DNA of 64,000 bases from Terracidiphilus sp. (GTDB lineage Bacteria; Acidobacteriota; Terriglobia; Terriglobales; Acidobacteriaceae), in the NCBI GenBank assembly GCA_035308825.1, contig DATGFX010000086.1:20283-84282 (forward strand), in the 5' to 3' direction. Below the pieces are notes generated by a model. It worked only from the letters and a program-made list of their open reading frames with translations, had not been told where the DNA came from and made no database searches. This document shows, piece after piece, positions 40,128 through 44,825 of the stretch (its first letter is position 1; every line of letters begins with the position of its first letter). The translations under genes were made by a program, and so were the position numbers.

Positions 40128-40865
40128 GTGCCGACGGCTTCCCAAGCCAAGCGAATCGTGAAGGTTTTCCGTCACCCCGGGGTGGTGCGCGCCACGCACT
40201 GGCTGACCTTCGTCGCGTTCATCGGGTTGTTGATTTCGGGCGGCGAGATCGTGATCCCGCATCCGCGCTTCTATTGGGGCGAGGTGGGGAACGTGAACAC
40301 GAAACCGTTGTTCGTGGTGCCGATTCCGGCGAGCCGCGATACCGTTCCGACCAGCTATCACTACGTACTCACCGACGAAAACGGATGGGGCCGGGAGCTG
40401 CATTTTGAAGCGGCATGGCTGGTGGTGCTCACGGGGCTGGTGTATGGGATTTACGGCCTGGCGAGCGGGCATTTCAGAAAGCGTCTGCTTCCCGAGCGCG
40501 GCGACTGGACGTGGCGGGCGTATTGGGATCGCATTGCGCAGTACCTGCGCCGCAAGCGGCCCGATCGCAGCGAAGAGACCTCGTATAACGTGCTGCAGAG
40601 AAGCTCGTACCTGGGAGTGATCTTCATTCTGTTTCCCCTGATGATCTGGACAGGGCTGGCGATGTCGCCGTCATTCACGGCGGTATTTCCCGCTACCGCG
40701 GCGTTGCTGGGCGGACGGCAGTCGGCGCGCACCATTCACTTCTTTGCTTCGTGGCTGCTGCTGTTTTTTCTGATTGTGCATGTGACGATGGTGAGCGTGT
40801 CGGGCTTCTGGCGGCGCATGCGGGCCATGATTACGGGATACACGCGAAGTTCCGAGGAGGACTGA
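40128..40865 (+). CDS. Cytochrome b/b6 domain membrane protein (Ni/Fe-hydrogenase cyt b-like; MsrQ-role candidate)
   Basis: Four TM with heme His residues (RATHW, RELHF, RTIHF, IVHV); YNVLQRSSY motif; TGATG-coupled to the molybdoenzyme. Confidence 0.88.
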   Translation: MPTASQAKRIVKVFRHPGVVRATHWLTFVAFIGLLISGGEIVIPHPRFYWGEVGNVNTKPLFVVPIPASRDTVPTSYHYVLTDENGWGRELHFEAAWLVVLTGLVYGIYGLASGHFRKRLLPERGDWTWRAYWDRIAQYLRRKRPDRSEETSYNVLQRSSYLGVIFILFPLMIWTGLAMSPSFTAVFPATAALLGGRQSARTIHFFASWLLLFFLIVHVTMVSVSGFWRRMRAMITGYTRSSEED

Positions 40866-41632
40866 TGAGCCCGTCGAAGCTGATGACGCGACGCAAGCTG
40901 ATTTCCGGAGGGGTTGCCGCGGCGGCGGGAGCCGGGGGCCTGGGAGCGGCGGACCGCATCGCGAAGCGGTGGGGGTTGATTCCGCCGGATGGCGGGGGAA
41001 TCTACGGTGCGGGCGAGACGCTGACGTACGCGTGCCAGCGCATCCTCAATGTCCACAGGCCAGCCCGGGAGTTTCCGCGCAGCATGATCTCGAAGAACCC
41101 GTTTGCGAATGAGGTGGCGCCGCCGACTGATCCGTTCAAAAAGCTGCAGGCAGGGGGATTCAAAGATTGGCGCCTGGTGGTGGATGGAACCGTCGCGCAC
41201 CCGCTGGTGCTCTCGCTGGCAGACCTGAAGAGCCTGCCGGTGCACAGCCAGATCACCGAGGTGGCCTGCGAAGAGGGCTGGTCGTATATCGCGGAATGGA
41301 TCGGCACGCCGCTGAGCGGAGTGCTCGAAGAGGCGGGCGTGCTGCCGCAATCGCGCTACGTGGTCTACTACCCGATTGAGAAGGGACTCTGGGAGAGCAT
41401 CGACATGGCCGATGCCACGGATCCCCATACGCTGCTGACGATGGGAATGAATGATGGCGAGTTGCCGGTTGGGTTCGGCGGTCCGCTGCGCCTGCGCTTG
41501 CCGCGCCAACTTGGGTACAAGAGCCTGAAGTACCTGACCCACATCACGGTGACGGACAACATCAGGAAGTTCGGCAACGGACAGGGTTCGGTCGATCCCG
41601 ACTACGGGTATTCGTGGTACGCGGGAATCTGA
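40865..41632 (+). CDS. Molybdopterin-dependent oxidoreductase, sulfite oxidase/MsrP-like, Tat-exported
   Basis: Start ATG 40865 overlapping upstream TGA; twin-Arg TRRKLI; WRLVVDG.V, VACEEGWS (Mo-Cys), GGPLRLRLPRQLGYKSLKYL. Confidence 0.9.
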   Translation: MSPSKLMTRRKLISGGVAAAAGAGGLGAADRIAKRWGLIPPDGGGIYGAGETLTYACQRILNVHRPAREFPRSMISKNPFANEVAPPTDPFKKLQAGGFKDWRLVVDGTVAHPLVLSLADLKSLPVHSQITEVACEEGWSYIAEWIGTPLSGVLEEAGVLPQSRYVVYYPIEKGLWESIDMADATDPHTLLTMGMNDGELPVGFGGPLRLRLPRQLGYKSLKYLTHITVTDNIRKFGNGQGSVDPDYGYSWYAGI

Positions 41633-41795: not shown

Positions 41796-42152
41796 GTGAA
41801 GCTGCACGGCAATCTTCGTCTGCGCATCGTCTTGATTGTTGCGCTGTGTGCGGCCTTCGCTGCCACTCCCGCGCTTGCCGAATACATCGCTTCGGTGCAG
41901 ACCGCGTGCCGCGGTCAGATGCCGTGCTGCCCCGTCTCAAGCGGCGAAATTGGCTGCACGCATCCGCAGTGCGGAGTTGTTGCCCGCCTGCATGCGGAAC
42001 TGGTGACGACGATCCCCGCAAGGTCAGCGGTTGTTGCCGCGGATGTATTTCGCTGGATGCCGACCATCGTCCGTTCGCGCGCGCCCTTCCCGATGGCGTT
42101 CGCGCCCCATCGGCCGCCGGTTTTTCGACTTAAGGAAGATCTCAGGATTTAA
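41796..42152 (+). CDS. Putative CutF/CruR-like regulatory upstream ORF (signal peptide, Cys cluster, C-terminal Pro-Pro)
   Basis: Sec signal (RLRIVLIVALCAAFAATPALA), ACRGQMPCCP...GCTHPQC, Pro-rich end APFPMAFAPHRPPVFRLKEDLRI; no SD, GTG 7 nt after TAGAAT. Confidence 0.75.
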   Translation: MKLHGNLRLRIVLIVALCAAFAATPALAEYIASVQTACRGQMPCCPVSSGEIGCTHPQCGVVARLHAELVTTIPARSAVVAADVFRWMPTIVRSRAPFPMAFAPHRPPVFRLKEDLRI

Positions 42153-42153
42153 C

Positions 42154-42222
42154 TCTTTCGGTGTCGTGTCTCGCTTGACTTCGCGCTTCGGCGCAAGCGT
42201 TCAACGCATTTCCACCGAAAGG
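42154..42222 (+). promoter_or_regulatory. SD-sequestering stem-loop between the uORF and the Cys-rich peptide
   Basis: TCTTTCGGTG (42154-42163) pairs with CACCGAAAGG (42213-42222): 9 Watson-Crick + 1 G-U; nested GCGC-UUCG-GCGC hairpin at 42183-42194. Confidence 0.7.
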
Positions 42223-42230
42223 ATCATTCC

Positions 42231-42401
42231 ATGAAAAAGATGTTCGCTGTTTTCGTTCTCACCCTGTCTTCGCTGTCGGCACTGGCCATCACGGCCGACT
42301 GCTGCAAGCCCGGATCGAAATGCTGCGCCGGGTCCTGCTGCGCGTCGAGCTGCTGCCAGCCTGGCTCGTCCTGTTGCCAGGGCGATTGCTGCAAGAAGTA
42401 G
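42231..42401 (+). CDS. Secreted 56-aa peptide with six Cys-Cys pairs (metallothionein-like candidate)
   Basis: Below the ORF-track cutoff. MKKMFAVFVLTLSSLSALAITADCCKPGSKCCAGSCCASSCCQPGSSCCQGDCCKK*; SD AAAGGA 7 nt upstream; classic Sec signal. Confidence 0.85.
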   Translation: MKKMFAVFVLTLSSLSALAITADCCKPGSKCCAGSCCASSCCQPGSSCCQGDCCKK

Positions 42402-42411
42402 CTTCTCCCAA

Positions 42412-42445
42412 GCCGGCTCGTGCCGAGGATTTCGGCCGGGCCGGC
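42412..42445 (+). terminator. Strong hairpin after the Cys-rich peptide gene
   Basis: GCCGGCTCG-t-GCCGA-ggatt-TCGGC-CGGGCCGGC, 14-bp stem with one bulge and one G-U; poor U-tract. Confidence 0.55.
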
Positions 42446-42506
42446 CCGGCTTAACCCCAGGCATTCCGTTTCGTTGTCCAGTCTGGCAGTTGGGTTGGTC
42501 CGCGCC

Positions 42507-42512
42507 TATAAT
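42507..42512 (+). promoter_or_regulatory. Consensus -10 TATAAT, leaderless-type spacing
   Basis: TATAAT ends 6 nt before ATG 42519; no SD. Confidence 0.6.
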
Positions 42513-42518
42513 CGCCGC

Positions 42519-44825
42519 ATGACTTTCCTAGGGGACCCCCGACGGCGCACCATTGCCTTGCTCGGCACGGGTGCGTTGTTGATTCTTGCCCTGCTGGGAG
42601 GTCTGCAGGCCTTCAATACTTCCAACGTCCGCTATCTGAATCCCGAAACAGCCGGAGAAACGCTGGCGTTTACCGGCCTTACGGTGATTGTTTTTCTGCT
42701 GTTGATGGTGCTTCTGCTGCTGCTGCTCAGGAACATTCTGAAGATTTATGCCGATCAGAGCAGCAGCGCGCTGGGAGCACGATTGCGGACACGCATGGTG
42801 CTGGGAGCGGTGTTGATCGCGCTCGCGCCAGCGGTATTCATGTTCTTATTCAGCTTCCAGCTGATGAATCGCTCGATCGACCGCTGGTTCTCGCCGAACA
42901 CGTCGGAACTGCGGGAAGACTCCACCCGAGTGGTGCTGGAACTGGCACAATACGTCACCAGCAACGCGCGCGGTGAAGCGGAATCGATTGCTGCCACGGG
43001 AGCGCCGGACGGCGACCCGGCCATGCTGCATAACGTGCTTGGATCGCATCGCATCACGCTCGATGGCGGTTTTGCCATCGTTTTTGACAAAGACCGTCAT
43101 GTGATTGCCAGCTACCTCGCGCCTGCTGAAACCAGCCCGGCAAACCTTATTCCGTGGATGCCCGATCGCAGCGATAGCGGCGGCAGCGTGACCGAGATTC
43201 CTTTATCGGGACCGCTTTCGGGCAACATCCTGAGTGCCGCGCAGCGCAACGATGAGCCGATCCTCCGCATTGGCGGACAGGACTACGCGCTGGGCATGTC
43301 GGCTACGAACTCCGGCAAGATGGTGGTTGCGGCTCTGCCGATGCCCCAGGGGCTGAGCCAGACGACCACGCGGATTCGAGAGGGCGCTGCCGCCTACTGG
43401 GATCTTTTCCGCACGCGGCGGCAGATACGAAACACCTTCTTTCTGCTGCTGCTGCTGATCACGGTGGTGGTGTTCTTTTCGAGCGTGTGGCTGGCGTTGT
43501 TTCTGTCAAAGCAGATCACGCGTCCGGTGGAGGCGCTTGCGGACGCTATGGATGAGATTTCTGCCGGAAAATACAATCACCGGGTCGCGCTGGCCACCAC
43601 GGGAGAGATGGCCGAACTGGTGCGGTCGTTCAATCACATGGCGGCGGATCTCGAGGCCACGCGGCAGCTGGCAGAGACGTCGTCGGCGCAGCTTACGGCG
43701 GCGAACCTTGCGCTCGAGGAGCGACGCCGGGAACTCGAAACGATTGTGGAGACGATTCCGAGCGGCGTGGTCACGCTGGATGCTTCGGGGCATGTTCTGC
43801 AGGCCAACCGGGCATTTGCCGTGCTGATGGGGCGGCCGGAAGACGCGGGACTTCGCGGCGAGAAGCTGGATGGGCTGATTCCGGCGGAGTGCCTGGAGGA
43901 ATTGGCGGGCATCATTCGACGAGGGCAGCGCATGGGCGCCGCTTCGACGGAGATGGAATTCCGGGTGCGGGGCCGCATCATGCACCTCGCGGTCACGAGC
44001 GCCCGGCTGGAACTGTTGCACGGGAAGGCCGGCACGGTGCTGGTGGTCGAAGATACATCGGAACTGCTGCGCGCCCAGCGCCAACTTGCCTGGAAGGAAG
44101 TGGCGCAGCGTGTTGCGCATGAAATCAAGAATCCGCTTACGCCGATTGCTCTCTCGGCGGAGCGGATTGGACGCCATCTTGACCGCAGCCTGCCCGATTC
44201 GCCGGCGGTGATCCGGAAGTGCAGCGAGGTGATTCTGAGTTGCGTTTCGACGCTGCGGACCCTGGTGGACCAGTTCTCAGCACTTGCGCAGTTCCCGGCC
44301 CCGCAGCCGCGCGCCTGCGACATGAACCAGATTGCCGATGAAGCGCTGGCGCTGTTTGCGGGCCGGCTGGACGGGATCACCGTACGCCGCAACCTGGAAC
44401 CCGGCTTGCCCATGGTGCTTGCGGATCCCGAGGCTATTCGTCGCGCTCTCGCCAATCTTATCGACAACGCGGCTGAGGCCATGCAGGGCAGCTTGCTGCG
44501 GGTGCTTGACGTTCGCAGCGGCCTGATTGAGGACGGCGGGGCCATCGAGATCGCCGTTGCCGACACGGGTCATGGCCTGACCGATGAAATTCGCGAGCGC
44601 CTCTTTCTGCCGTTTTACTCGACGAAACAGCGGGGCACGGGGCTCGGTCTTTCGATTGCGGCCAAGATTGTGCAGGAGCACGGCGGCTCGCTTCGGGCCG
44701 AGAGCAACAGTCCCAAGGGCGCTCGCTTTCTGATGCGTCTGCCGCTGATGGAGCAGCCCGCTCCCAGCGCATCGGACAAGCCTGAATCGGATACTCCCGC
44801 TCCTGTCACGGGAGCCAGCCGGTGA
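42519..44825 (+). CDS. NtrY-like HAMP/PAS sensor histidine kinase
   Basis: Start moved to ATG 42519; three N-terminal TM, SIDRWFS, HAMP, PAS, AWKEVAQRVAHEIKNPLTPI.LSAER, N box NLIDNA, DTGHG, GTGLGLSI. Confidence 0.92.
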   Translation: MTFLGDPRRRTIALLGTGALLILALLGGLQAFNTSNVRYLNPETAGETLAFTGLTVIVFLLLMVLLLLLLRNILKIYADQSSSALGARLRTRMVLGAVLIALAPAVFMFLFSFQLMNRSIDRWFSPNTSELREDSTRVVLELAQYVTSNARGEAESIAATGAPDGDPAMLHNVLGSHRITLDGGFAIVFDKDRHVIASYLAPAETSPANLIPWMPDRSDSGGSVTEIPLSGPLSGNILSAAQRNDEPILRIGGQDYALGMSATNSGKMVVAALPMPQGLSQTTTRIREGAAAYWDLFRTRRQIRNTFFLLLLLITVVVFFSSVWLALFLSKQITRPVEALADAMDEISAGKYNHRVALATTGEMAELVRSFNHMAADLEATRQLAETSSAQLTAANLALEERRRELETIVETIPSGVVTLDASGHVLQANRAFAVLMGRPEDAGLRGEKLDGLIPAECLEELAGIIRRGQRMGAASTEMEFRVRGRIMHLAVTSARLELLHGKAGTVLVVEDTSELLRAQRQLAWKEVAQRVAHEIKNPLTPIALSAERIGRHLDRSLPDSPAVIRKCSEVILSCVSTLRTLVDQFSALAQFPAPQPRACDMNQIADEALALFAGRLDGITVRRNLEPGLPMVLADPEAIRRALANLIDNAAEAMQGSLLRVLDVRSGLIEDGGAIEIAVADTGHGLTDEIRERLFLPFYSTKQRGTGLGLSIAAKIVQEHGGSLRAESNSPKGARFLMRLPLMEQPAPSASDKPESDTPAPVTGASR

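Follow-up and report, generated by a model that had tools for sequence, protein, structure and literature searches.

A predicted sensory leader and an exported peptide of vicinal cysteine pairs form a conserved two-gene cassette in Acidobacteriaceae

Introduction

CutF of Rhodobacter capsulatus, a small protein exported by Sec, carries a CxxxC motif and, at its C-terminus, a motif that stalls the ribosome (PMC9973294). Its Cu-dependent pause melts a stem-loop that shields the Shine-Dalgarno (SD) sequence of cutO, and CutF itself is degraded after export (PMC9973294; bioRxiv 10.1101/2025.02.05.636593). Here we describe a cassette of similar design in Terracidiphilus sp., a member of the Acidobacteriaceae, in which an open reading frame (ORF) for a 118-amino-acid (aa) protein, referred to as the partner, precedes the gene for a 56-aa exported peptide built from vicinal cysteine pairs, referred to as the CC peptide. 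Both lie in a stretch of 64,000 nt (contig DATGFX010000086.1, positions 20,283 to 84,282 of the forward strand), the whole of which is hereafter called the window.

Arrest peptides that act at a stop codon are also known, with NSP-stop, NAP-stop and DGMK-stop among them (PMC10987492). Another comparison is offered by the bufferins (Buf1/DUF2282 and Buf2), MNIO-modified and copper-chelating members of the ribosomally synthesised and post-translationally modified peptides (RiPPs) of the periplasm; their precursors have a Sec signal peptide, contain 4, 6 or 12 Cys and are in many cases encoded away from an MNIO gene (PMC12452194).

A preliminary description of the window, drawn up from its letters alone, had singled out the CC peptide as a possible metal sponge, redox buffer or disulfide-knotted peptide; it had noted neither the partner nor the pairing at the SD sequence, the chief features of the locus. 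We show that the peptide is a real gene, that it is obligately linked to the partner and that a covarying RNA helix masks its SD sequence; by analogy with CutF, the cassette may be a leader-gated system directed against thiophilic metals.

Results

The CC peptide is a conserved exported peptide

The CC-peptide gene occupies 42231–42401 of the forward strand, on which all features described here lie, and runs from an ATG to a TAG stop (42399–42401), with a GAAAGGA SD sequence 7 nt before the ATG (42217–42223). Its 56-aa translation is MKKMFAVFVLTLSSLSALAITADCCKPGSKCCAGSCCASSCCQPGSSCCQGDCCKK. A signal peptide of 19 aa (42231–42287), ending at residues 17–19 in A-L-A, a plausible and typical signal-peptidase I site, is followed by the mature part, CCKPGSKCCAGSCC-ASS-CCQPGSSCCQGDCC-KK (42288–42398), in which 12 Cys are arranged as six CC pairs. 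The ORF, its six pairs and its two 14-aa units of the form CCxPGSxCCxGxCC were found exactly as first reported; the mature length, given earlier as about 34 aa, is 37 aa when taken from the A-L-A site.

Within its own genome the gene is single-copy. Of the genome's 76,344 open frames of at least 40 aa, only two besides this one pack six CC occurrences into 40 residues, and both are junk frames with irregular CCC/CCCC runs and no signal peptide ahead. The peptide had been called unannotated, which fits its absence from the called proteins of the window in the protein database, where the upstream partner ORF is present; gene callers do predict CC peptides in other assemblies.

A search for homologues among small ORFs with the CCxPGSxCC pattern had been suggested. 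Protein searches, both word-based and exhaustive, and the reading of peptides from fetched loci gave a family of at least 56 distinct peptides. The homologues from the protein searches are 41–86 aa long and are all labelled 'hypothetical'; those with named sources come from Terracidiphilus/Acidobacteriaceae metagenome-assembled genomes (MAGs). The Cys pairs are kept across the homologues and the spacers vary, with whole CCxxx units gained or lost in-frame across the 56 variants. Pairwise dN/dS between the CC peptide and 13 homologues was 0.10–0.27 at dS of 0.6–1.9, confirming a real gene under strong purifying selection. SD sequence, signal peptide and spacing are conserved in 35 loci, in keeping with the Sec-type signal originally proposed.

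Family members contain between 6 and 15 Cys, with modes at 12 and 6 and an odd number in 15 of the 56. Overall composition is 27% Cys, 15% Gly, 14% Ser, 10% Ala and 8% Lys, C-terminal His is frequent, and hydrophobic and aromatic residues are almost wanting (F+W+Y close to zero), so that the metallothionein-like makeup ascribed to the one peptide extends to the family. The CC peptide has no meaningful match in Pfam or NCBIfam, DUF2282 included, and the mature peptide had no match at E<=10 in a sequence search of the PDB. AlphaFold2 (AF2) predicted no fold in the Cys-rich part and none beyond the signal helix. The variable and often odd Cys number and the lack of a predicted fold argue against the fixed six-disulfide knot that had been entertained; the other suggestions, a thiolate metal binder or a thiol buffer, fit both features.

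Several candidate matches were discarded. A Shiga-toxin B match (E=0.035) spans the signal peptide only, and two long proteins from the representative search (P0006, P0009) contain no Cys and match in the signal-peptide region only. Weak family-level tblastn matches (L009–L011 and L013–L015) contain no CC-peptide ORF, and a further match (L054) falls inside an alaS-like gene.

A partner ORF always precedes the CC peptide

The partner ORF (41796–42152, with its TAA stop at 42150–42152) lies directly upstream. All 35 partner loci have a CC-rich ORF with a signal peptide 69–140 nt downstream, and the partner is likewise present, directly upstream, at every locus fetched via the peptide. The linkage is kept even in divergent genomes whose peptide is no longer detectably homologous (L019, L020, L021 and L053); here the downstream products include ...TCCDNPACCDGSGCCK in L019, ...MCCDQPACCHGASCCGQ in L020, ...SCCGEPSCCSSDSCC in L053 and, in L021, a CC-rich protein of 118 aa.

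Four parts make up the partner: a Sec signal peptide; the Cys motif (H)MPCCP...C....C; a linker that keeps its length while its sequence drifts almost neutrally; and a C-terminus, VFRLK(D/E)DLRI-stop, that is invariant. In the window, the signal peptide covers about residues 1–29 (...TPALA, cleaved before EY) and was called on the n-region Arg, the hydrophobic h-region, the A-x-A site and a confident AF2 helix over residues 3–38; the motif reads C40-x3-MPCCP-x7-C-x4-C and the C-terminus VFRLKEDLRI-stop. A profile search returned at least 177 protein clusters, all hypothetical proteins of Acidobacteriaceae, and the partner has no Pfam or NCBIfam match.

Conservation among the homologues is limited to the signal region, (H)MPCCP-x(5-9)-C-x4-C and the last ~22 residues (RELTxGLRxxxxVFRLKDDLRI). 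M-P-C-C-P, C54, C59 and V-F-R-L-K-D-D-L-R-I are invariant or near-invariant, and a His often precedes the motif (HMPCCP). In 78 homologues, 105–130 aa long, the distance from CC to the C-terminus is 72–80 aa, mostly 73–76; that from the last conserved Cys to the C-terminus is 57–63 aa, and the spacer from signal to end is ~85 aa. The linker has a pN/pS of 0.85 and the last 10 codons one of 0.096, with pS alike at 0.68, indicating that the constraint on these codons acts on the amino acids and not on the RNA. An AF2 model built with 80 homologues gave a confident N-terminal helix only, the remainder being unstructured. The partner is thus most likely a sensory leader rather than a folded protein.

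Across 32 distinct loci the partner ends in TAG in 18, TAA in 14 and TGA in none, with repeated switches between TAG and TAA; TGA ends 49% of the long ORFs in the window genome. The loci are related, so this avoidance of TGA is suggestive only. The never-TGA stop may reflect a release-factor-specific requirement.

A weak partner-like ORF with CC motifs (MACCKQMAGDCDM...HSCCKD) was seen at 945–1403 of locus L022 (genome G037). It is followed downstream by an exported protein of 282 aa without Cys and by a small protein (2469–2837 region) that by eye resembled a heavy-metal-associated (HMA) domain; the ORF may be remotely related to the leader and wired in a different way.

A covarying RNA helix masks the SD sequence of the peptide

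Between the two genes the RNA folds into a long-range helix, defined by the minimum free energy (MFE) fold and by covariation. Its 5' arm, TCTTTCGGTG (42154–42163), is an anti-SD sequence that starts 2 nt past the partner stop; its 3' arm, CACCGAAAGG (42213–42222), overlaps the SD sequence of the peptide. The helix encloses a central GC hairpin, CGCTTG...GCGC-TTCG-GCGC...CAAGCG (42172–42199). The window fold has an energy of -31.8 kcal/mol (z = -2.96 versus shuffles), and the same architecture is the MFE fold in most loci despite sequence change in the arms (CCTCTC/GAGAGG, CCTTTCAGTGTG/CACACTGAAAGG and GCTTTCCGTG/CACGGAAAGG).

In an alignment of 28 distinct loci, 87.8% of the helix cells are standard pairs, as against 30–60% when the 3' columns are slid by 1–3 positions, and none of 500 shuffles reached the observed covariation score. 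Clean covariation is seen at two pairs: 8/96, which lies inside the SD sequence, has CG at 11 loci against UA at 10, and 11/93 has AU at 8, GC at 6, CG at 3 and GU at 3. The GCGC/GCGC core of the central hairpin is invariant or compensated, with 96% of its cells paired. The anti-SD:SD helix therefore exists and covaries. More distant variants preserve the principle in other ways, with the codons for D-L-R pairing with the SD sequence in L021, and bases past the stop codon pairing with the start-codon region in L008. No Rfam family was found for the intergenic RNA.

A ribosome with a stop codon in its A site covers and unwinds roughly the first 8–12 nt 3' of the stop. This footprint coincides with the 5' arm of the helix, which makes the presence of a ribosome at the partner's end the expected condition for translating the peptide.

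The cassette is self-contained and patchily distributed

The partner-peptide pair occurs in at least four unrelated genomic contexts. In the window and its close relatives it stands between alanine dehydrogenase (Ald) and an NtrY/NtrX-like two-component pair; at about 16 loci a TPR-secretin precedes it and TauE follows; elsewhere it is found beside glyS, or in further settings whose neighbours have nothing in common. A GC-rich terminator-like hairpin without a T-run follows the peptide gene of the window (42412–42445); a terminator-like hairpin is found after the peptide in most homologous loci, and many of them have a classic hairpin with a T-run at the same position. Beyond it, a conserved promoter-like element, CTGGCA-18-TATAAT, and the ATG of the NtrY-like kinase (42483–42522, ATG at 42520) mark a separate transcription unit; the kinase ORF seems to continue further upstream, but stops interrupt this stretch in L006, where the DNA motif is conserved. 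Given the unrelated contexts, the terminator-like hairpin and the kinase's own promoter, 41796–42401 of the window is a self-contained bicistronic cassette. An obligatory link to the NtrYX-like pair or to the secretin was rejected, as the two contexts exclude each other and the kinase is served by a promoter of its own. The adjacent sigma-54 activator prompted a scan for sigma-54 promoters, which found no enrichment and placed no site ahead of the cassette.

Among ~400 sampled genomes of the phylum, the cassette was seen only in the Acidobacteriaceae, the window's own family, and there patchily (3 of 33 and 6 of 200 genomes sampled); in 4 further genomes from the window's genus no cassette was found. 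Carriers with named sources are without exception MAGs, obtained from peat, palsa, SPRUCE bog or Danish soils, and the CC-peptide family was found only in uncultured Acidobacteriaceae. A search of plasmid records with the partner gave no match.

Several features of the neighbourhood were also recorded. The apparent start ATG of the kinase lies ~7 nt past the conserved TATAAT, the -35/-10 DNA being conserved in five loci, and its position suggests a leaderless or very short-leader mRNA. In the window and L006, a cytochrome b561 and molybdopterin-oxidoreductase pair (MsrQ/MsrP-like, with a weak MsrP equivalog score) lies between alanine dehydrogenase and the cassette (window 40128–41632; L006 3958–5462); it is absent in L003, L004, L005 and L007. 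The ~10 kb from Ald to the cassette in the window also hold FG-GAP/Ig and Trans_reg_C-PD40 genes.

In the commonest context the partner starts 46 nt past a gene for an orphan TPR-secretin, around which no further genes of a secretion system are seen, and the gene order is purC-cvpA-fis-HAD-secretin-partner-peptide followed by a convergent TauE (L023, L024, L026 and about 13 further loci; e.g. L026 5081–6955). In some of these loci (L038, L024, L030, L037, L039, L040 and L045) tandem repeats of 6–7 nt fill the spacer between peptide and terminator, within the first ~90 nt past the peptide stop (GGTGGCC about 12 times in L038, GGGAGCC/GGTAGCC variants elsewhere), and their copy number differs between genomes. 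The window genome's own secretin orthologue has no cassette. Convergent beside it is a gene for a DsbA-like exported thioredoxin-fold protein with the motif FQCSHC (G000 contig C2; L049 370–1437), which bears on the redox state expected of exported cysteines.

Comparison with described leaders

In overall design the cassette matches CutF (cutFOG), with sequence homology undetectable. Like CutF and the operationally defined CutF-like/DUF2946 leaders (CruR, CopL, SilD and CusD), the partner is shorter than 150 aa, has a Sec signal and a Cys motif in its exported part, and ends in a conserved element. In both cases a stem covers the SD sequence of the following gene on the same strand, and the upstream product lacks a predicted fold. 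The intergenic region is short in both, at less than 100 nt in the CutF type and 69–140 nt in the cassette (35 loci). The two differ in the sensor motif, (H)MPCCP...C....C in the partner and CxxxC in CutF; in the distance from sensor to end, about 60–75 aa in the partner and 45 in the CutF type; and in the tail, which is proline-rich in CutF-like leaders and proline-free in the partner (VFRLK(D/E)DLRI-stop). They differ also in their targets, the CutF type preceding a multicopper oxidase, RND pump, PCuAC or TonB receptor and the partner a 56-aa exported poly-Cys peptide. Small Cys peptides are not among the frequent downstream neighbour classes in PMC9973294, the main text of which makes no mention of Acidobacteria.

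With SecM, MifM, VemP and the stop-dependent arrest peptides the partner has in common an N-terminal signal, a spacer of more than 30 aa and an extreme C-terminus conserved within the family, and in both cases the motif reaches the stop codon and the downstream SD sequence is tied up in an RNA structure, which would be melted once a ribosome stands at the ORF's end. The partner differs in its additional invariant Cys motif and in a C-terminus unrelated to the described arrest motifs, and its arrest is putative. It has three of the four properties by which Sec/YidC monitoring substrates were discovered (PMC10987492); it is not an upstream ORF of sec or yidC, the gene downstream being that of the CC peptide.

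Comparison with metallothioneins, bufferins and other Cys-rich proteins

Metallothioneins, of which the characterised bacterial ones are cytoplasmic, are very small proteins of roughly 30% Cys with Gly/Ser/Lys/Ala spacers. The CC peptide shares these traits with SmtA/BmtA, MymT and the eukaryotic Cu- and Zn/Cd-metallothioneins, as it does the lack of aromatics, the lack of a predicted apo-fold and internal duplication, and at 37 mature residues with 12 Cys and no aromatics it agrees with them in size and composition. Unlike metallothioneins it is Sec-exported, and its Cys occur almost only as vicinal CC rather than as CxC/CxxC. It matched no known metallothionein family in Pfam or NCBIfam and no PDB sequence at E<=10.

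Bufferins, which are associated with copper stress, and the CC peptide are both small Cys peptides with Sec signals in which 6 or 12 Cys are common (PMC12452194). The CC peptide differs in its Cys pattern, in the lack of a DUF2282 match and in the lack of adjacent MNIO, DUF2063 or DoxX genes; the statement that no RiPP-modifying enzymes lie nearby thus holds among the scanned neighbours. The genome's only MNIO gene (DUF692) is on another contig, with a precursor of its own. This canonical bufferin-type cluster (G000 contig C12:107516–111298; L055) comprises, in order and on one strand, a 116-aa signal-peptide precursor with CKGKNDCKGQGGC.../CKGKNSCKGKGGC repeats, the MNIO gene, a DUF2063-like gene and a DoxX-like gene.

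Dense Cys, CC pairs and short Pro/Ser/Gly spacers are also found in chlamydial OmcA and in keratin-associated proteins (CCxPxCC repeats). The CC peptide differs from these in that it is much smaller, shows no homology to them and has no lipobox, OmcA being a lipoprotein; a cross-linking role for it is hypothetical.

Discussion

The cassette combines a known kind of switch design with an undescribed type of target. By analogy with CutF, it could well be a leader-gated, exported, metallothionein-like binder of thiophilic metals, a reading that we put forward tentatively and with somewhat less than even confidence. Export of the partner would be co-translational and through Sec, and by the time the ribosome arrives at the last ten codons, VFRLK(D/E)DLRI-stop, the partner's (H)MPCCP...C....C motif would have emerged just beyond the translocon. 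As the RNA 3' of the partner stop pairs with the peptide SD sequence, translation of the second gene would require a ribosome that sits or pauses at the end of the first and melts the helix, and the dwell time of that ribosome would be set by what the exported Cys motif meets in the periplasm. The ligand may be a thiophilic metal, with thiol oxidation as the alternative; Cu(I) is the leading candidate because of the analogy with CutF and the His/Met/Cys makeup of the motif. We infer that metal would prolong the stay of the ribosome on VFRLK(D/E)DLRI-stop, whereupon the anti-SD helix would open and the poly-Cys peptide would be made and exported. With six vicinal Cys pairs in 37 aa and no hydrophobic core, the peptide would buffer the periplasm in the manner of a metallothionein, holding soft metals in thiolate clusters within the envelope. 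In turn, the CutF-like leader gating would lend new, if indirect, support to a metal role for the peptide. The further claim, that VFRLK(D/E)DLRI with UAG or UAA is a new termination-type arrest motif, read via an exported HMPCCP thiol/metal sensor and driving the first Sec-exported unmodified metallothionein-like bacterial peptides as a periplasmic Cu/Hg/Cd sponge, we consider possible but doubtful.

A number of points weigh against such metal sensing. Ribosome stalling at the partner end is argued solely from analogy and from conservation, and the invariant hydrophobic-x-hydrophobic C-terminus could instead be a protein-binding tail such as a PDZ ligand. CutF-type prolines are scarce, with PP in the last 15 residues of 9 of the 78 partner homologues, and DUF2946 (PF11162) had no match at E<=10 in the whole genome or in 80 partner family members. 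No metal-homeostasis genes are conserved beside the cassette, as judged by the annotation of its neighbours in the window and in the other contexts. Periplasmic metal binders usually employ Met and His, the periplasm being oxidising, and the DsbA-like protein encoded in the genome would tend to oxidise the twelve exported thiols.

The missing metal genes and the DsbA-like gene suit an explanation by plain translational coupling of two envelope thiol/disulfide proteins, in which the helix merely enforces stoichiometry. The partner would then be a stable membrane-anchored or periplasmic protein, its CC motif exchanging disulfides with the peptide and its C-terminal tail binding another protein, and the peptide would be either an oxidised envelope cross-linker, like OmcA and the keratin-associated proteins, or a sacrificial periplasmic thiol/redox buffer. 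The anti-SD helix fits termination-dependent coupling equally well as stalling and could serve it without any sensing. Both proteins carry CC motifs, the odd Cys count in 15 of 56 peptides would favour intermolecular bonds, and the CCxPxxxCC repeats recall those of keratin-associated proteins. However, the partner has no predicted fold beyond its signal helix, and a near-neutral linker of fixed length, hard to square with a binding protein, is typical of nascent-chain sensors; TGA is avoided at the partner stop, and a 37-aa peptide with neither anchor nor sorting signal would make an odd structural element. On balance we regard coupling without sensing as rather unlikely, though of real weight.

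It is quite improbable that the CC peptide is a stand-alone bufferin-type RiPP precursor whose Cys are converted, for example to thiooxazoles, by an MNIO encoded elsewhere before copper is chelated. Bufferin precursors do have Sec signals and 4, 6 or 12 Cys and often lie away from the MNIO gene (PMC12452194); the genome has the one MNIO-DUF2063-DoxX cluster on contig C12, and an MNIO was found in all six tested cassette genomes that are at least 90% complete, versus about 28% of sampled family genomes. However, the MNIO is also present in cassette-free close relatives (G186, G530 and G184) and was not found in the cassette-bearing G076 (83% complete), so that the co-occurrence looks phylogenetic. 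Moreover, the C12 cluster has its own adjacent precursor with CKGxxxCKGxGGC repeats, the CC peptide matches neither DUF2282 nor any other family, and vicinal CC is not a described bufferin pattern.

Slightly less probable still is a secreted signal acting as ligand of the adjacent NtrY-like kinase, or a disulfide-rich bacteriocin leaving via the secretin, with the partner as immunity protein, chaperone or processing factor. The proposal draws on the NtrY/NtrX-like pair directly downstream in the window and its close relatives, and on the secretin gene that ends 46 nt upstream of the partner at about 16 other loci; however, the two contexts exclude one another, further contexts have neither, and the secretin orthologue of the window genome goes without the cassette. 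The kinase has its own conserved promoter, with the terminator-like hairpin between it and the peptide, and the variable, often odd Cys count and lack of a hydrophobic surface are unlike known disulfide-rich toxins. Finally, a chance open frame arising from TGC-rich sequence in a GC-rich genome, for which it can be said that off-frame Leu/Ala-rich DNA can give CC runs and that a few such junk frames exist in this genome, is effectively refuted by the comparative data, namely the dN/dS of 0.10–0.27, the conservation of signal peptide, SD sequence and spacing in 35 loci, the in-frame unit indels across 56 variants and the gene calls in other assemblies.

If the metal-sensing leader is borne out, exported nascent-chain metal sensing of the CutF/CruR kind would extend to a new phylum and to a non-homologous leader, with a motif that is proline-free and possibly termination-dependent and a target of a new kind. 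An exported, genetically encoded poly-thiolate peptide would join the periplasmic metal defences, which otherwise consist mostly of Met/His ligands or enzymatically modified RiPPs. The cassette is only about 600 nt long and self-contained, and would be easily tested in a laboratory host. It is carried by uncultured Acidobacteriaceae that are abundant in peat, palsa and acid soils, where Cu and Hg speciation is ecologically important, and the peptide could there matter for metal cycling.

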